NCBI GenBank assembly: GCA_040880465.1
Contig: JBBDIK010000012.1
Location: forward strand, 116,469-180,468
Reading direction: 5' to 3'
Source: Actinomycetota bacterium
GTDB lineage: Bacteria > Actinomycetota > UBA4738 > JBBDHU01
DNA length: 64,000 nt
Numbering within the stretch: position 1 is the stretch's first letter; each line of letters begins with the position of its first letter. Shown here piece by piece: positions 4,974-63,922 of this stretch. The notes under the pieces are model-generated. The model saw nothing but the letters and a program-made list of their open reading frames with translations. It was not told the origin of the DNA and ran no database searches. The position numbers and the translations under genes are program-made.

Positions 4974-5073
4974 CGAGAGGGACTCCGAACGCCAAAACCC
5001 CAGCTAGACAGGGGAAAACCGGATGGTATCATGGGCAACCGAGCACCACGTCGGTCCGATCTGGAGCCTCCCC

Positions 5074-5253
5074 ATGGCCGAGCACGCAGCGGAGATACCC
5101 GGGCAACAAGGGCCAGTCGCCTCACAGCAGGCGTCCGAACGACGCTGTGAGATCTGCGATACCAAGCTGTCCAGCTACAACCCCGGGCCCAATTGTTGGC
5201 AGCACACGATCGGTCATCCCTGGCGCGGCCCGACGGCCAAGCCCAAGTACTGA
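5074..5253 (+). CDS. small hypothetical protein with Cys/His cluster
   Basis: MAEHAAEIPG...RRCEICDTKLSSYNPGPNCWQHTIGHPW has a CxxC...CxxH zinc-finger-like pattern, and GGAGCC lies upstream of the ATG. An alternative start exists at 5023. No family recognised. Confidence 0.3.
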   Translation: MAEHAAEIPGQQGPVASQQASERRCEICDTKLSSYNPGPNCWQHTIGHPWRGPTAKPKY

Positions 5254-5265
5254 CTGGGAGCTCCG

Positions 5266-5985
5266 CTAGCCGGCCCGCTCCAGCAGAGCCAGCTCGTCTT
5301 CCTTCCTGCGGAGGAACGCGGCCCAGTACACCAGGGCGGCGGCGACGCCCCCGGCGACGGGACCGATGAGGTAGATCCACCAGTCCGACCACGTTCCGGA
5401 GACGATCGCCGGACCGAACCAGCGTGCGGGGTTCATCGCGGCGCCGGTCATCGGACCACCCATCAGGATGTCGAAGGTCAGGACCAAGCCGATCGAGAAC
5501 CCGGCCAACTTCGAGAACGCCCCGCGAGGATCGACGGCCGTTCCGAAGACGGCGAACACGAGGAAGAAGGTCAGGATCGCCTCGGTCGCGACCCCCTGCA
5601 TGGCGCCGACGCCCAAAACGCGGTTGAGTTGCGGCGTGCCGAGCATGGCTTCTTCCCAGAGCGTCTTCGGAACCACGAGACTGAGCGCCAATGCGCCGAA
5701 GACCGCGCCGGCCATCTGAGCCGCGATGTAGCACATCGCGCGGGTGCTTTCGACCTTGCCGGTGACCCACAAGCTGATGGTCACCGCCGGGTTCACGTGA
5801 CCGCCAGAGATCTGTGCGGTGATCGAAACGAGGACGGCGAGAGCGATCCCGTGCGCCAGGGCTACGGCCACGAGTCCGGCCCCGCTGAGGTCGTTGGCGG
5901 CCATGACGACGGCGCCTGCGCCGATGAAGATCAGACAGAAGGTGGTGATGAACTCCGCGATCCATGCTCGCGATATCGGCTCCAT
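5266..5985 (-). CDS. aquaporin / MIP-family channel
   Basis: Two NPA boxes (HVNPAVT, MNPARW) in a multi-TM hydrophobic protein. Start set at ATG 5985 (MEPISRAWIAEF...), because the upstream extension to 6129 is Arg/Pro/Gly-rich. Confidence 0.9.
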   Translation of the reverse strand: MEPISRAWIAEFITTFCLIFIGAGAVVMAANDLSGAGLVAVALAHGIALAVLVSITAQISGGHVNPAVTISLWVTGKVESTRAMCYIAAQMAGAVFGALALSLVVPKTLWEEAMLGTPQLNRVLGVGAMQGVATEAILTFFLVFAVFGTAVDPRGAFSKLAGFSIGLVLTFDILMGGPMTGAAMNPARWFGPAIVSGTWSDWWIYLIGPVAGGVAAALVYWAAFLRRKEDELALLERAG

Positions 5986-10199: not shown

Positions 10200-10228
10200 A
10201 GTGTACCGAACATATGTTCGAGAATCAA
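10200..10228 (-). promoter_or_regulatory. promoter (TTGATT-17-TACACT) with an embedded LexA/SOS box
   Basis: The minus strand reads cTTGATTcTCGAACatatGTTCGGTACACT. TCGAAC-N4-GTTCGg (plus-strand 10206-10221) matches the actinobacterial SOS box TCGAAC-N4-GTTCGA at 11 of 12 positions. It lies 40 nt upstream of the exonuclease GTG. Confidence 0.7.
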
Positions 10229-56925: not shown

Positions 56926-57453
56926 ATGGAAGAGCCGAAGCCAGAGGCAGCAGGTGAGCCCACCCGGCAGGCGAAGAGGAAGTCTCATCCCGTTCGTGTC
57001 GCGCTGATCACGATCGGCTGCATAGCCGTAGTTGTAATCGTTGTAATCTTCGTGGGCAATCCGACCTACGACAACAGGGAGAGTGCGCAGCGCAAGGCCG
57101 CCCAGTCGAGCCTCCGGAACGCGATGGCCGCAGCGAAGACCGTGTATGTCGAACGGGACGACTACGGCTTGGTGTCTGCGAAGACGCTGATGAAGTTGGA
57201 ACCCATTCTGACGTTTACGTCTGGGGAGTCGAAGGGCCCGCTTGAGGTGGCCTGGCGTGTCGATGATGTCGTGACGGAGGAAGCGACGTTCCCTGACACG
57301 CAGTTCAGTGCCGCGGTTCGGTCCGAGAGCGGGGAATGCATGTACATCAGCGACGCCGCCGCCCCGCCTTTCCACGGCGGAACGTTCTACGGATCCGGCG
57401 ACGTCTGTACCGCCGATGCCGCTCGCCAGGGCGCGACCAACACAACTTGGTGA
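56926..57453 (+). CDS. membrane-anchored hypothetical protein (post-TM segment weakly pilin-like)
   Basis: Basic N-terminus, then a TM (VALITIGCIAVVVIVVIFVG), then AQRKAAQSSLRNAMAAAKTVYVERDDYG.... Contains many A/T-ending codons. No prepilin cleavage motif. Confidence 0.5.
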   Translation: MEEPKPEAAGEPTRQAKRKSHPVRVALITIGCIAVVVIVVIFVGNPTYDNRESAQRKAAQSSLRNAMAAAKTVYVERDDYGLVSAKTLMKLEPILTFTSGESKGPLEVAWRVDDVVTEEATFPDTQFSAAVRSESGECMYISDAAAPPFHGGTFYGSGDVCTADAARQGATNTTW

Positions 57454-57550
57454 GTCTTGTGGAGCGTTATGTGTGATGTGGGTCACTGCGCGCTTCGGCG
57501 GAGGATGTCACCCTTGCGAGATGGATGCCGCTAGCGTACGATTCACTGAC

Positions 57551-57820
57551 ATGAAGCGTACAGATGAACCGAAAGGTGTGAGTCTCACCGAGCTCCGCGA
57601 CGACCTTGGTCGCTACGTCGACCGCGCGTCGTCGGGGGAAGAGATCACGATCACCGACCGCGGCCGGCCGGTGGCTCGGTTGTCGCCGCTGCGTGACGCC
57701 GTCGACGAGCTGATCGCTCAGGGCCGGGCGCGGCCGCCGCTGAGGCCGCGTCGTCCGGCCAGCGAACGGCCCGCACCGATCAAGGTCAAAGGCACCGTCT
57801 CGGACCTGATCCGTCGATGA
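57551..57820 (+). CDS. type II antitoxin (Phd/YefM-like)
   Basis: 89 aa. VSLTELRDDLGRYVDRASSGEEITITDRGRPVARL is the Phd/YefM N-terminal signature. ATGA overlap with the PIN toxin gene. TACGAT lies 8 nt before the ATG. Confidence 0.8.
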   Translation: MKRTDEPKGVSLTELRDDLGRYVDRASSGEEITITDRGRPVARLSPLRDAVDELIAQGRARPPLRPRRPASERPAPIKVKGTVSDLIRR

Positions 57821-58236
57821 AACTCGTGTTCGATACGTCGGCCTTGGTGAAGCTGCTCGTCGAGGAGGAGGGATCCGACGAGGCCGACGTCCTGTGGGAG
57901 CAGCCGGGTCGGCGCCATGCCAGCGCCATCGTGCTCCCGGAGGCACGATCGGCCATCCGTGCGGCGGAACGGGCTGGTCGGATCTCACGTCCCCGATCCG
58001 CCCGAGTCCGGGATGAACTCCGAACGTATTGGGACGAGGTGGTGGTCATCGGCGTGGACGATCCGATGGCTCGCAGAGCTGCCGAGATCGCCGACGGGAC
58101 CGGGCTCAAGGGCGCCGACGCGATCCACGTCGCGACGGGTCTCGCCGTCGGGGCCGAGGACACGGTCCTCGTCACCTGGGACCGGGCGATGGCCAACGCG
58201 GCGACCGAACTCGGTCTCGCCGTAGCCCCCGCGTAG
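57817..58236 (+). CDS. vapC: type II toxin VapC (PIN-domain ribonuclease)
   Basis: MKLVFDTSALVKLLVEEEGS..., ...GADAIHVATG... and ...LVTWD supply the PIN acidic residues. 139 aa. Confidence 0.85.
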   Translation: MKLVFDTSALVKLLVEEEGSDEADVLWEQPGRRHASAIVLPEARSAIRAAERAGRISRPRSARVRDELRTYWDEVVVIGVDDPMARRAAEIADGTGLKGADAIHVATGLAVGAEDTVLVTWDRAMANAATELGLAVAPA

Positions 58237-59494: not shown

Positions 59495-60154
59495 TTGGAC
59501 GACGAGGCGGCAAGCGTCAGCGAGATAGTCGAGCTGACCCCCAGGGAGGAGCACGTGAGACTCCTGCTTGCGCGATCACGAGTTCCCGAGACGGCCGAGA
59601 TGTACCTTGCCGCCAAAGAGATGCTTGCCGGGGGCGTGAGAGACCTGGAAGCCCTTGTCGCCCTTGAGATGCGCGAAATCATGGACAAGATGTCCTCTGC
59701 CCACGACGCCCCAAAGTCGGACGGGCTAAAGAAGCGCACCCGGGATCTTCAGGGACACTGGGCGAAGGTGCAGGCTATGTCGCCTGACTGGACCGAAGGG
59801 CAGGTTTTGAGCGGACCCCTCGCGGCATTCCTTGGCGAGACGAAAGCGTTCTTCGGAGACTTCGAGACTGAGCACCAGACCAGATCGGCACGACCCCTAG
59901 CTGTTCTGGACGCTACGGATGTTTCCGGTCTTCCAGCACCTGACCCAGTCAGAAGGCAGTTCGCTAGCGAGTGGCTCGAATTGGACTCCTATTTCAACAA
60001 CGGAGCGCACCACGTCGTTTCCAGCAGGGCGCTAGAAGCGATGGTCACGAGGCTTGAGGGCCTTCTCTTGAGACTGCTCGAAGCCCGACCAGCCGACGTG
60101 TACCCGGTCCTCGACGCATTGATCGAGCAAGGGGAGGAGGAATTCGGTGGGTAG
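59495..60154 (+). CDS. hypothetical protein (gene 1 of a lower-GC three-gene operon)
   Basis: 219-aa ORF with a TTG start (uncertain). Predicted mostly helical, and no catalytic motif recognised. Its stop overlaps the next gene's start by 8 nt (GTGGGTAG). Confidence 0.5.
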   Translation: MDDEAASVSEIVELTPREEHVRLLLARSRVPETAEMYLAAKEMLAGGVRDLEALVALEMREIMDKMSSAHDAPKSDGLKKRTRDLQGHWAKVQAMSPDWTEGQVLSGPLAAFLGETKAFFGDFETEHQTRSARPLAVLDATDVSGLPAPDPVRRQFASEWLELDSYFNNGAHHVVSSRALEAMVTRLEGLLLRLLEARPADVYPVLDALIEQGEEEFGG

Positions 60155-62990
60155 CGTGCCGATCGATGACGTCGTTCGCCAGATCCGCGACACCATTACG
60201 CGTGGTGATGAGGCGCAGTACTTCTTCCAACAGCTGAAGTCACCGGACTGGCTAGCCCCTTTGAAGCGCGCGGGCTTCTTTGACGCCCTCCCTCCACTCG
60301 AGGAACTACCCGAGGGATACGTCCGTTTCCCAACCTGGCCAGCTGCGGGATACCTAGAGAGGATGGCCCAGCTTGCGCCGGGCGAAGTTGCGGAAATCAT
60401 TCTCAATCTTGGCCTCACCAAGAACGCCCGGGCCATCGCTGGTGTCGTTGAGGTCGCGCTCGCGCTTCCTCCTGATCGAGCAGGACGAGTCGCACCGATG
60501 GCAAGTGTCTGGTTGGAACAATCAGCACAGCTGTATGTGCCGGATGCTCTTGGCAAGCTCATGGCTTACTTGGCCAAGGCGGGAGAGATACGAGGGGCTC
60601 GGCAAGTGGCTGAAGCCTTGTTGTTCCTGGAGAGATCTCCCGACATCCAGATCGGGGATGGTCTGACGATGCCGGCGCACGCCAGGGTGCGGTTCGCCAA
60701 ACACGACCTAGCCGAAATCCTGGAAACGAGTTTCGCTGACTTGGCACGCGCTGATCCCATCCCGACCGTTCAACTTCTAGCCACCAAGTTGGCCTTGGCG
60801 ATACGCCTCCCGCGCGAAAAGGAGCTCCGGAGCGCATACGAGGACTACTCGTACATATGGAAATCGGATCTGCGTGCGCCAGACAACGACCATGAGGTAG
60901 AAGGCTATTTGGTAAGTGCCGTTCTCGCCATATCGCGAATGGTCGTCGAAAGTGATCCGGGCGCGCTGTCATCAATAGTCGACCTTCTTTGGGTTGAAGA
61001 GCTCCTCATTCACGATCGGGTGGCGACGCTTCTCGTGGCCGAGCTGGCGCCAGAGGGAGATCCGCTGCTGACTCAAACCCTTTCCCGTCCACGGCTCGCT
61101 GAGAACTCACATCTCTGGGAAGAGGTTGAGCAGCTGGTGGCTCGACTCAGTGAAGTACCAAAGGATGCGCGAGACACTTTTGTTGCTCGGCTTCTCTGGG
61201 TTGAGCCCGAATCAATTGACGAGGATGCTGACGATGAGCTGCGCCAGCGTGTTTCGCTCCGAGCCGACCGTTCATTGACGATCAAGTTGGGGTCCCTGCC
61301 AGCCAGCTTCCTCACCCCCGAGCAACACCGCGATCTTGAGAATGCGCAAGGCCGTCTGAGCGCCTACCGATCAACACTGCCCGGCGAGCTCGAAGGAGAC
61401 AAGGCTCTGCACGATGCAGCAGAGAGCCTTGGAGGCCTGACACCCGCGGAGGTCATCGCGCTTATTGAGGAGGTCGATGCTGCAAGTCCTGTGACCCAAG
61501 ATGCCCTCGAACATCTGGGGGACGCATTCACCGCACGGGTAGCCAGCGATGCGCCCGCCTTCTCCGGTTTGGCCCAGCAGCTTGAGGGGCTCTCCCCCCT
61601 GGCTGTTCAGAGCTTCATGCGGGGCCTGCGTCAGTCGGAGGCTGACGAACCACTTTCATGGAGACCACTCCTTTCACTCATGGCATGGGTAGTTGATCAG
61701 CCCCGAGCTGACTCTGAGGCAAGGCGGTCGCACCCCGACATCGATCCCGGCTGGGCCTGGACCCGCGACACCGCCATTGACCTTGTCGATGATGCGTTGC
61801 GCAAGCCGGCATCCCGTCCCCGTGACATGGACGATGTTCGTGAACCGTTTTGGGGAGTCATACGGCTCCTGGCCGATGATCCGGATCCCGATTCAGATCG
61901 CGACAAGGAAGTGATGGAGCGGTCGCGGGAGCACCGAGCTGTGGGCGGACCGGCGGCCGAACTGTCCATCAACTCAATCCGAGGGCGGGCACTGCACGCG
62001 GCGTTCAACTATCTTCGCTGGATTATCGAGAGCGACGAGCCATCGGCCAAGGGCGCGACGTTGAGTTTCCTCGCGCCCGGGCTGCTGTCTCTCGTTGAGG
62101 AGAAGCTTGAAACCGACCCGTCACCTGCCGTTCGGTCGGTGATCGGAACGAACATGGTTCTACTCGACTGGGTAGATCCAGTGTGGGTGCAGGATTCCAG
62201 GGAGAAGGTCTTTAGTCGTAGCGGCACGGGGTTGGATGTGCTCGGGCAAGCCGCCTGGGACAGCTTCATCACATTCACTCGAAATCCCGGGCGCCTTTTC
62301 TCCACCTTGCAAACCGAGTTTGAGATTGCGGTTCAGGCGCTCGATGCCGCAGCGGATTCGCGCAGGGATCGCGAGTCACCCGCGGCCAATCTGGGTCAAC
62401 ACATCGTGGTCAGATACTGGTTCGGTGACCTTTCGCTGGATTCGCCTTTCATCGAGGGCTACTTCGAGCGGGCGGCGGGTGGCGACAGGGCCAATGCCCT
62501 GACATTCATCGGTCGAAACCTGAAGTTGGCGGAACCTGAGGTCGTCCAGCGGGTCATAGAGCTATGGGAGTGGCGTCGTAGCGCAATCGCCTTCGACACG
62601 GCAGCCCCCGACGGCTATCGACAAGAACTAGCGGCATTTGGCTGGTGGGCAAAGGCACCCAACCTTGACGCCGGGTGGGTAGTGGATCAGCTTCTCTTCG
62701 TGACGAGCCTGGGTGTATCCCCAGATCTTGAGCATCTCGTGACCCAGCGCCTCGTCGAGGCAGTCCACGACTTCCCGCTTTCCGTCGCTCAAGTGACGGA
62801 ACACATCATCATCAACGACCGGGATGCCTGGCTATTTCAGGGGCCGATCGACGACTTCACAGTCATCCTCTCGGCGCTTGCCGATACGCGACCCAGCGAA
62901 GCATGGAGCATCGGCTACGGCGTGGCCAACAGGCTTGTAGCGATGGGCAACAAGTCGCTCATGCGGTTTGCCGCGACCCCAAATGAGTAA
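60147..62990 (+). CDS. large (947 aa) all-alpha repeat-like hypothetical protein (gene 2)
   Basis: Uninterrupted 2.8-kb ORF with clearly different codon usage (many A/T-ending codons). No Walker A, HExxH, DEDD, PD-(D/E)xK or other motif recognised. The N-terminus is YFFQQLKSPDWLAPLKRAGFF. Confidence 0.7.
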   Translation: MGSVPIDDVVRQIRDTITRGDEAQYFFQQLKSPDWLAPLKRAGFFDALPPLEELPEGYVRFPTWPAAGYLERMAQLAPGEVAEIILNLGLTKNARAIAGVVEVALALPPDRAGRVAPMASVWLEQSAQLYVPDALGKLMAYLAKAGEIRGARQVAEALLFLERSPDIQIGDGLTMPAHARVRFAKHDLAEILETSFADLARADPIPTVQLLATKLALAIRLPREKELRSAYEDYSYIWKSDLRAPDNDHEVEGYLVSAVLAISRMVVESDPGALSSIVDLLWVEELLIHDRVATLLVAELAPEGDPLLTQTLSRPRLAENSHLWEEVEQLVARLSEVPKDARDTFVARLLWVEPESIDEDADDELRQRVSLRADRSLTIKLGSLPASFLTPEQHRDLENAQGRLSAYRSTLPGELEGDKALHDAAESLGGLTPAEVIALIEEVDAASPVTQDALEHLGDAFTARVASDAPAFSGLAQQLEGLSPLAVQSFMRGLRQSEADEPLSWRPLLSLMAWVVDQPRADSEARRSHPDIDPGWAWTRDTAIDLVDDALRKPASRPRDMDDVREPFWGVIRLLADDPDPDSDRDKEVMERSREHRAVGGPAAELSINSIRGRALHAAFNYLRWIIESDEPSAKGATLSFLAPGLLSLVEEKLETDPSPAVRSVIGTNMVLLDWVDPVWVQDSREKVFSRSGTGLDVLGQAAWDSFITFTRNPGRLFSTLQTEFEIAVQALDAAADSRRDRESPAANLGQHIVVRYWFGDLSLDSPFIEGYFERAAGGDRANALTFIGRNLKLAEPEVVQRVIELWEWRRSAIAFDTAAPDGYRQELAAFGWWAKAPNLDAGWVVDQLLFVTSLGVSPDLEHLVTQRLVEAVHDFPLSVAQVTEHIIINDRDAWLFQGPIDDFTVILSALADTRPSEAWSIGYGVANRLVAMGNKSLMRFAATPNE

Positions 62991-63807
62991 CAAGGATCAC
63001 CGACGCTTCTTGCGGCTGAAGGCCACGCGGCGTGGCTACTTCGAGAATGCGGCCGAACGGCTGGCCGACGCCGGGAGGCTCCACCTGGACCTAGAGGTTG
63101 GATCCTTCGATACCTCCATCGTCGTGCACGGCTCCGCCGATGGCGCAGGGGAAGGTTGGGTCGAGGCTAGGGGGAACACGTGGGGATCTGGCGTTCAGGT
63201 TGAGTGGGAGACGCGGGAAGAGCTCATCGAGATCCTCGCAAACGACCTGATGGGCTCTGCCGCCAACTTTCCAGGGGTGGGCGAACGCATCCCCTTGGAT
63301 CCCATGGACCCGGATTCCGTCGGTAGCCGAGGCGAGCCATCTGGTAGCCGCTTCCGCAATCTTTTCGACGAGGCCGATGCGCTCTCTCGCGCAGGTCTCG
63401 ATCCCAGTGAAGTTGTGCTTGAGGTTGGGAGATGTGCAGACATCACCACGTTCGGGGACCTGGACACGGCGGGTGCCTCATGGGTGTATGTCATGGTCAC
63501 CGACACGTCGCTTCGTTGGCTTCCGCTCGGATCTCCGGAAACGCCTGCGGTTCTCGCCCTCGATGCCGTGGAGTCTCCTGTCGATGCTCGGTGGCGCCAG
63601 CGCTGCGCCTTGGTGTTGCGACACGAGGAGCTCATCAGAACGCACCTGTCTGCTGATCACGATTGGGTGACTGGGCCCTTGAAGTTGGTAGTTCTGGCTT
63701 TCTCCCACGCGCACACCAAGGCCGCAGACGCCTTGCGGGCCCAGCTGGAAGCTCGGAGCATGCACGTCGAGATTCTCGATCTGCCTAGTTCGGGGCTTCC
63801 GAAGTAG
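62983..63807 (+). CDS. hypothetical protein (gene 3)
   Basis: 274 aa from ATG 62983, an 8-nt overlap (ATGAGTAA) with gene 2. Alternative TTG start at 62968. No family recognised. Confidence 0.6.
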   Translation: MSNKDHRRFLRLKATRRGYFENAAERLADAGRLHLDLEVGSFDTSIVVHGSADGAGEGWVEARGNTWGSGVQVEWETREELIEILANDLMGSAANFPGVGERIPLDPMDPDSVGSRGEPSGSRFRNLFDEADALSRAGLDPSEVVLEVGRCADITTFGDLDTAGASWVYVMVTDTSLRWLPLGSPETPAVLALDAVESPVDARWRQRCALVLRHEELIRTHLSADHDWVTGPLKLVVLAFSHAHTKAADALRAQLEARSMHVEILDLPSSGLPK

Positions 63808-63866
63808 CCAACACCCACCCTGGGTTTTGCGTTTCAGCAGATCATCCCCATAGACCCAATCTCATC

Positions 63867-63896
63867 TTGACGGATGTCGGACCCTCGGCGTATCGT
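63867..63896 (+). promoter_or_regulatory. promoter TTGACG-18-TATCGT
   Basis: A good sigma-70-type -35/-10 pair lies in the intergenic region after the three-gene operon. Confidence 0.55.
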
Positions 63897-63906
63897 TCAA
63901 GGTCCA

Positions 63907-63922
63907 TCGAACATACGTTCGA
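63907..63922 (+). promoter_or_regulatory. perfect LexA/SOS box TCGAAC-ATAC-GTTCGA
   Basis: 12/12 match to the actinobacterial SOS box consensus TCGAAC-N4-GTTCGA. It begins 10 nt downstream of the -10 hexamer. Confidence 0.75.

Follow-up and report, generated by a model that had tools for sequence, protein, structure and literature searches.

A divergent gene pair from an Actinomycetota genome as a predicted two-gene anti-phage module of the DSR1/Avs7-sensor class

What kind of system is encoded by three consecutive genes at the end of a 64,000-nucleotide (nt) stretch of DNA from an Actinomycetota bacterium (assembly GCA_040880465.1, contig JBBDIK010000012.1, positions 116,469 to 180,468 of the forward strand; hereafter, the window)? 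Gene 1 (59495-60154, 219 amino acids (aa), TTG start), gene 2 (60147-62990, 947 aa, GTG start) and gene 3 (62983-63807, 274 aa from the ATG at 62983 and 265 aa in the NCBI annotation) were all located on the plus strand, and Pfam and NCBIfam scans of their products returned zero family matches. This agreed with the original prediction, made from the DNA sequence of the window, which had recognized no SIR2, TIR or P-loop signature in the three proteins and had regarded the trio as a candidate accessory or defence-type system of unknown function.

We propose that genes 1 and 2 together make up an anti-phage module belonging to the DSR1/Avs7-sensor class, namely a divergent split-gene member with a predicted effector, and we assign to this reading a probability of roughly 0.7. 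The defence-type part of the original prediction was supported by the homology to the Dsr1 family, but the three-gene unit was not, since gene 3 was unconserved. The description of the kind as unknown did not hold either: gene 2 corresponded to the sensor moiety of DSR1, gene 1 occupied the slot of SIR2, and the class was published in 2026.

The gene-2 sensor family and its exchangeable partner

The PADLOC model of Dsr1 was matched by residues 651-764 of gene 2, which aligned with model positions 940-1047 of 1227 (E-value of 6e-6). The same model was matched by all 40 diverse members of the gene-2 family that were scanned (best E-value of 4.8e-76). Moreover, residues 219-1120 of one natural fusion protein, P0063, aligned with model positions 290-1167 of 1227, which was the entire post-SIR2 portion of Dsr1. 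From these alignments, gene 2 was identified as a homologue of the DSR1 sensor moiety, that is, of everything that follows SIR2, and as the most divergent member seen. The PADLOC comparison, which the original prediction had suggested as a check, was thus productive both for the window copy and for its family.

The size of this family depended on the sensitivity of the search. A word-index homology search with gene 2 found 7 relatives only, and the window protein itself was annotated as 'MAG Actinomycetota bacterium, hypothetical', with MAG standing for metagenome-assembled genome. An exhaustive profile search with the gene-2 family yielded 8420 representative clusters at E <= 1e-3 and 4160 at E <= 1e-30, so the family was judged to be large. 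The impression that gene 2 was rare and gene 1 an orphan was rejected as an artefact of word-index sensitivity, since the profile search gave the 8420 gene-2 relatives and the genome loci gave gene-1 homologues.

The AlphaFold2 (AF2) model of gene 2 was an all-alpha solenoid, with a mean predicted local distance difference test score (pLDDT) of 76.7 and a predicted template modelling score (pTM) of 0.49, in agreement with the long helical-repeat scaffold that had been suggested for this protein. Foldseek, another check proposed at that time, was less helpful: the gene-2 model and the model of a natural fusion, P0082, matched generic HEAT/ARM solenoids only, with TM-scores <= 0.30, and no fold was assigned to gene 1. 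Among PDB sequences, searches with gene 2 and its family profile found no related solved structure.

A pattern scan with one genome per species identified 123 related loci, and the analysis continued with 80 of them. These loci spanned many bacterial phyla as well as archaea and had a patchy distribution, with Nostoc, Pyrinomonadaceae, Acidimicrobiia, Omnitrophota, Candidatus Daviesbacteria, Methanothrix and Thermoplasmata among the taxa represented. The solenoid homologues had either an overlapping upstream open reading frame (ORF) of about 220-300 aa or an N-terminal extension of 170-280 aa, and overlapping junctions of 4-38 nt recurred among the two-gene homologues. As many as 68 of the 75 upstream genes or N-terminal extensions belonged to a single family that included gene 1 (phmmer E-values down to 1.6e-19).

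The arrangements were counted over the 76 full-length solenoid loci from genomes. The gene-1 domain was encoded by a separate upstream gene in 42 of them and was fused to the N-terminus of the solenoid in 27, while 5 loci had a SIR2 gene upstream instead and 2 had some other arrangement. The upstream genes of the five exceptional loci matched SIR2_2 of Pfam with E-values from 2e-8 to 5e-17 and also matched positions 121-287 of the Dsr1 model; by their domain content, these loci were split DSR1 systems. The SIR2-partnered solenoids nested among the gene-1-partnered ones, with identities of up to 51%, and the split and fused forms interleaved throughout the solenoid tree. The analysis thus showed directly that gene 2 is homologous to the DSR1 sensor and linked to gene 1, that the two are fused in nature and that SIR2 can take the place of gene 1.

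The reciprocal search, which started from the gene-1 subfamily and used metagenome contigs, found a solenoid directly downstream in 70 of the 75 loci with enough room for one. A seeming exception, L163, was itself a fusion. Thus, the conserved module consisted of two genes, gene 1 and gene 2, and their linkage was obligate; it was considered a two-gene module because gene 3 had no homologue and no other third gene was conserved beside the pair.

Truncated gene-1 homologues, matching residues 6-148 of the query, were present in three metagenome loci (L159-L161, at approximately 5001-5435). There was no solenoid downstream of the truncated gene in L160 and L161, and the contig of L159 ended too soon. 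It was likely that these truncated homologues were decayed remnants of the module.

Several unusual architectures were also observed on the sensor side. Namely, a 1615-aa ORF of Nostoc sp. DedSLP03 (L034, 4072-8919) had an N-terminal AAA_35 STAND-like ATPase (E-value of 4.5e-28) and a C-terminal solenoid; this Avs7-like architecture was placed among gene-1-type sequences and was the sole related locus with AAA_35. Several homologues from haloarchaeal plasmids were annotated as AAA or ATP-binding proteins. In a MAG of Actinomycetota, a 1606-aa ORF (L084, 4021-8841) carried Thioredox_DsbH (DUF255, E-value of 7e-60) in frame with the solenoid. The two domains may be genuinely fused; alternatively, the ORF may have been extended artificially because it was called from its first start codon and the genome is rich in GC.

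The gene-1 domain in the effector position

The gene-1 family was very divergent, with a mean column identity of 18%, and yet a small set of residues was almost invariant. Arg60 (R60) and Glu61 (E61) were each kept in 67/67 alignable members, and their codons were located at 59672-59677 of the window on the plus strand. His172 (H172), the His of the '...NNGAHHV' motif (codon at 60008-60010, plus strand), was kept in 67 of the 68 members and Asp207 (D207; codon at 60113-60115, plus strand) in 66 of 68. Trp160 (W160) and His57 (H57) followed, with 64 and 63 members out of 68, respectively. The window copy of gene 1 retained R60, E61, W160, H172 and D207 and had Leu at position 57.

Because R60, E61, H172 and D207 were near-invariant despite the mean identity of 18%, gene 1 was probably an enzyme, and we predict a nuclease or RNase. 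Its role as the effector was suggested by the combination of these invariant R-E/H/D residues with a position that was interchangeable with SIR2.

The fold of the domain was read from the AF2 model of the natural fusion P0082 (pLDDT of 85.9, pTM of 0.76), to whose N-terminal domain gene 1 aligned directly with an E-value of 3e-11. In this model, the gene-1-type domain was composed of six helices interrupted by a low-confidence insert, which was missing from the short fusion-type gene-1 domains.

A possible hint about the chemistry came from the Pfam family PF18165 (pP_pnuc_1, 'predicted pPIWI-associating nuclease'). Sub-threshold matches to it were found in 15 of the 68 family members and in 9 of the 10 closest relatives of gene 1, at model positions of approximately 6-42 of 133, and the aligned stretch contained the conserved AHxLRE helix of the gene-1 family. 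Neither window gene 1 nor the short fusion-type N-domains matched pP_pnuc_1 when scanned with Pfam, and there was no pPIWI gene nearby. We found nothing in the literature on pP_pnuc_1 or PF18165; the nuclease described in the pPIWI-RE paper was a different one, with a REase fold.

The original prediction had noted a faint HEPN-like motif in gene 1. The corresponding segment, LDSYFNNGAHHV, did contain the near-invariant H172, but the canonical Rx4-6H motif of HEPN domains was not conserved. The invariant R60-E61 pair was located in a different helix than H172, and the HEPN-related signals were restricted to matches to CARF_HEPN models with E-values of about 0.03.

Most gene-1 homologues had no other domain. 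Extra N-terminal domains were present in a few of them: DUF4062 in 3 and a HTH domain in 3. The DUF4062 matches (E-values down to 6e-17) were at the N-termini of gene-1-domain ORFs from Pyrinomonadaceae (L017 4965-6005, L026 4875-6002 and L080 4794-6002), and the HTH_3 domain preceded the gene-1 domain in three fusion proteins (e.g., P0071). Both DUF4062 and HTH_3 were extra modules on the effector side.

Architecture of the locus, gene 3 and genomic surroundings

Inspection of the sequence confirmed that genes 1 and 2 overlapped by 8 nt, GTGGGTAG, at 60147-60154. The whole coupling junction (60133-60154, plus strand) consisted of a Shine-Dalgarno sequence, GGAGGAGG, positioned about 6 nt 5' of the gene-2 GTG, followed by this GTG overlapping the TAG stop codon of gene 1 by 8 nt. 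Genes 2 and 3 overlapped by ATGAGTAA at 62983-62990 if the ATG at 62983 was taken as the start. The mechanical ORF of gene 3 opened at TTG 62968, and the 265-aa product in the NCBI annotation implied a start at TTG 63010 with no overlap. Thus, the coordinates and the junctions that had been reported for the three genes were reproduced, with the second overlap hinging on the start chosen.

The start of gene 1 was also called differently in a database, where an internal ATG gave a protein of 184 aa. According to the alignments of homologues, this ATG would interrupt a conserved helix. The 219-aa TTG form was better supported, judging from the alignments, because the homologues conserved sequence upstream of the internal ATG.

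The three-gene unit had a GC content of 0.59-0.62, compared with approximately 0.67 in the remaining window. The GC content at third codon positions (GC3) was 0.705 for gene 1, 0.654 for gene 2 and 0.705 for gene 3, whereas the 32 long ORFs upstream averaged 0.82; the fall began at about 59400, where gene 1 started. The frames of genes 1 and 2 were intact over 219 and 947 codons. On the basis of the low GC3, we concluded that the gene 1/gene 2 pair was acquired horizontally, as had been proposed from its codon usage.

Gene 3 encoded an acidic protein with a coding-like pattern of GC content at the first, second and third codon positions and with a low GC3 like that of genes 1 and 2. No homologue of it was found in a database of 5.8 billion proteins, in 84 related genome loci and 80 metagenome loci (164 in total), in phage records or in PDB sequences. 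Furthermore, no third gene was conserved next to the pair; the largest cluster of downstream genes had 4 members, all from close relatives. Gene 3 was thus a lineage-specific orphan outside the conserved module, although it was probably co-transcribed with genes 1 and 2. The proposed check for recurrence of the trio across genomes near defence genes had a positive outcome for the pair but not for gene 3.

The three-gene unit was closed by a terminator-like hairpin at 63813-63825, with a T-run to 63835, on the plus strand. It was followed by a promoter-like site, TTGACG-18-TATCGT (63867-63896), and behind it by an exact SOS/LexA-type box of the actinobacterial type, TCGAACATACGTTCGA, at 63907-63922. 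After this box, a gene beginning with MAKRYDDDV... started at approximately 63973 and was cut by the end of the window; it appeared to be a separate transcription unit past the hairpin. A second SOS-box-like site, CCGAACATATGTTCGA, was present at 10206-10221 with 1 mismatch to TCGAAC-N4-GTTCGA; at this stringency, 8 of 100 shuffles also contained two matches.

Upstream of gene 1, a Phd/YefM antitoxin (57548-57820, PF02604, E-value of 1.5e-10) and a PIN toxin (57817-58236, PF01850, E-value of 2.3e-13) overlapped by 4 nt (57817-57820) and formed a VapBC-like type II toxin-antitoxin pair. The distance to gene 1 was about 1.3 kb, with a gene for a DAO-family oxidoreductase in between. Further upstream, an ORF of 175 aa (56926-57453) with a GC content of 0.619, a GC3 of 0.756, a hydrophobic N-terminal stretch, VALITIGCIAVVVIVVIFVG, and no Pfam match corresponded to the anomalous membrane protein of the original prediction and was possibly another foreign gene. 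The accessory character that had been ascribed to this neighbourhood was therefore confirmed by the Phd/PIN module and the low-GC ORF upstream and by the exact SOS box downstream. A tRNA or integrase boundary of an island was sought; there was no tRNA in the window, which ended 190 nt past gene 3. A metagenome contig from ENA (L002, 11847-16842), which encoded P0005, a gene-2 homologue with 26% identity, also had a toxin-antitoxin pair (DUF433/PIN_10) and a DAO-family fragment nearby. This echo of the PIN and DAO genes of the window may be a coincidence or may reflect a shared island backbone.

A census of the ORFs closest to the pair in the genome loci, 142 in number, showed that the gene-1/gene-2 family had a defence-island and mobile-element context. 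The commonest neighbour families in Pfam included components of type I restriction-modification (R-M) systems (Methylase_S 5, N6_Mtase 4 and HsdM_N 4), and PADLOC identified MTase_I 7 times and Specificity_I 6 times among the neighbour ORFs. DEAD/Helicase_C/MZB helicases (3), AAA_21 (3), PIN (3), NYN (2) and transposases were also frequent. One case was WP_331721222.1, a protein of 1090 aa in which the gene-1 domain was joined to the solenoid (hidden Markov model E-values of 5e-23 for the gene-1 family and 9.5e-116 for the solenoid) encoded on a plasmid of Streptomyces sp. NBC_00212 (NZ_CP108116.1; L165, 4395-7667). Directly downstream, on the opposite strand, there were Tn7-like genes encoding TniB, Mu-transposase-C (tnsB) and a TnsA-like protein, and the fusion gene was probably cargo of a Tn7-like element.

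Known systems, alternative explanations and significance

DSR1 has been described as a single SIR2-containing defence protein that causes transient NAD+ depletion (Garb et al. preprint). Its sensor is now known to be shared more widely: the Avs7 sensor is common to Dsr1 and to other non-STAND defence proteins with NADases, nucleases or protein kinases (PMC13581612, published in Nature in 2026; preprint PMC12803255). According to the same two sources, proteins with the Avs7/Dsr1 sensor include a HEPN-like protein ('HEPN-like RNase') of a Streptomyces strain, and the sensor family of Avs7 also has EAD-bearing members. The Avs7 and Dsr1 clades intermix, as would be expected if effectors were exchanged. 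SeAvs7 and EcDsr1 are activated by the phage major capsid protein only, a monomer of which is clamped by the bilobed, sharply bent TPR sensor (PMC13581612, PMC12803255). In DSR2, an N-terminal SIR2 effector is restrained by a large alpha-solenoid that binds the phage tail tube protein (PMC11850899, PMC10981675).

The window pair resembled DSR1 (Gao et al. 2020; Garb et al. 2022) in that the gene-2 family was homologous to the whole post-SIR2 part and in its layout, where the effector precedes the sensor either as an N-terminal domain or as an upstream gene. In contrast to DSR1, there was no SIR2 in window genes 1-3 according to Pfam, so NAD+ depletion would not be expected; among the related loci, SIR2_2 was confined to the alternative upstream gene of the five described above. 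Moreover, the putative window effector was a different, small all-alpha domain encoded by its own gene with an 8-nt overlap in a different frame, whereas DSR1 is one polypeptide. With the Avs7/Dsr1-sensor class as a whole, the pair had in common the sensor superfamily, with homology via Dsr1, and a variable effector N-terminal of the sensor (the gene-1 domain fused in 27 loci and upstream in 42, SIR2 in 5). It differed in being split into two genes and highly divergent and, unlike Avs7, it did not have a STAND NTPase, as no NTPase domain was present in genes 1-3. The logic of an N-terminal effector checked by a large solenoid binding a phage structural protein would be the same as in DSR2, but a sequence relationship to DSR2 was not detected, and neither the effector nor the likely trigger is the same.

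Judged by its sequence, the window pair belonged to the broader Avs7/Dsr1-sensor class with exchangeable effectors and was neither DSR1 proper nor Avs. The sensor class and the exchange of its effectors were already published in 2026 (PMC13581612, PMC12803255); what was new in comparison to the characterised members was the predicted effector domain and its frequent encoding as a separate coupled gene. The 'HEPN-like' category of that work may be the gene-1 domain, an identity made plausible by the Streptomyces fusion.

In the mechanism that we propose, the gene-2 sensor would clamp a newly made phage structural protein, which would most likely be the HK97-fold major capsid protein by analogy to EcDsr1 and SeAvs7. 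A conformational change or oligomerisation after clamping would then switch on the gene-1 protein. This enzyme, most plausibly a nuclease or RNase, would stop the replication of the phage or the infected cell. Three elements of this mechanism are inferred: what triggers the pair, the activity of the gene-1 enzyme and the defence phenotype. A bolder version of this proposal, which we considered doubtful, was that the gene-1 family may be a new all-alpha enzymatic effector class with an R-E...H...D site, neither canonical HEPN nor a solved nuclease fold, that would be activated in trans by the capsid-sensing solenoid from a separate coupled gene, with gene 3 recruited as a regulatory or immunity component.

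A number of observations weighed against the two-gene defence reading. The Dsr1 match of window gene 2 was weak and covered residues 651-764 only, so that the link was strong only at the level of the family. On the effector side, the N-domain of the P0082 model was moderately confident (pLDDT of 72-85) with a disordered insert, and a search of PDB sequences with the gene-1 family profile found no relative. The closest relatives of gene 1 matched positions ~6-42 of pP_pnuc_1, but the best of these matches reached 23.9 bits against a gathering threshold of 26.3, with approximately 35 residues aligned. The canonical Rx4-6H motif of HEPN RNases was absent as well, since no Arg was conserved 4-6 residues before H172 in the family alignment. 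No relatives were found in the viral contigs of IMG/VR. Finally, the window pair was an outlier of its family, having at most 29% identity to its relatives, 79% of the conserved columns and Leu in place of H57, and it could be decaying or retargeted.

The last point corresponded to an explanation in which the pair descends from a defence module but is now non-functional or co-opted, and we regarded it as having a low probability. The window solenoid was the most divergent of the 40 members compared, keeping 60 of the 76 highly conserved columns (79%) where the others kept 86-100%, and the SYIWRPAIEDHxQN and VYGQWFP motifs of the family were altered in it. However, rapid divergence is normal for arms-race sensors, both frames were intact, their junction was coupled and included a strong Shine-Dalgarno sequence, and R60, E61, W160, H172 and D207 were retained. 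The loss of H57 was not specific to the window copy, since it was also replaced in three members of the same subfamily (L044, L074 and L035), and this residue was therefore dispensable there. A role for gene 3 as a lineage-specific third component of a genuine three-gene system, where it might for instance be the actual effector, regulate the pair or prevent autoimmunity, was equally judged to be quite improbable. Defence systems do acquire accessory genes, and gene 3 was on the same strand with the same lowered GC3 of 0.705, overlapped gene 2 in an 8-nt ATGA-type junction if it started at ATG 62983, and preceded the single terminator-like site of the unit. On the other hand, the NCBI start abolished this overlap, no homologue appeared among the 5.8 billion proteins, the 84 genome and 80 metagenome loci, the phage records or the PDB sequences, and no third gene was conserved by the pair, the largest downstream cluster having 4 members from close relatives.

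It was also unlikely that gene 1 lacked catalysis and served the solenoid as an EAD-like or antitoxin-like domain, in an adaptor or regulatory role, with the output residing elsewhere, for instance in the sequestration of a phage protein or the recruitment of a host factor. Its core of six helices had a size typical of adaptor bundles, our searches identified no catalytic fold, EAD-bearing members exist in the Avs7 sensor family, and the few homologues with DUF4062 (3) or HTH (3) could have the real effector or a regulator in these domains. However, most gene-1 proteins had neither another domain nor a conserved third gene, so an adaptor would be left without a partner. Residues R, E, H and D that stay near-invariant at a family identity of 18% suggested chemistry rather than packing, and the domain alternated with a SIR2 NADase at the same position. 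An even more conventional role, that of a housekeeping helical-repeat scaffold complex without any function in defence, was disfavoured and seemed very improbable to us. The Foldseek matches of gene 2 did include importins, CAND1, SF3B1 and similar scaffolds, but they were generic (TM-scores <= 0.30), whereas the family specifically matched Dsr1, swapped its partner with SIR2 and was distributed patchily over phyla and archaea. Its neighbours were R-M systems, transposons and toxin-antitoxin genes, and the window pair was compositionally foreign.

As an anti-phage module of the DSR1/Avs7-sensor class, the locus would be ordinary in kind, and it marks a branch of a newly understood class of defence systems. 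Within one lineage of solenoid sensors, SIR2 and a small helical domain could replace each other as the partner, and sensor and partner were encoded either jointly or separately. The gene-1 domain was carried by 69 of the 76 closest genome loci, and 8420 representative clusters matched the sensor profile. Thousands of 'hypothetical proteins' could be re-annotated as 'DSR1-type sensor' or 'sensor-associated effector domain'. With the forms that are split in nature, the activation of an effector by its sensor in trans could be studied cleanly, and defining the chemistry of the R-E/H/D domain would enlarge the DSR1/Avs7 toolkit by one effector.

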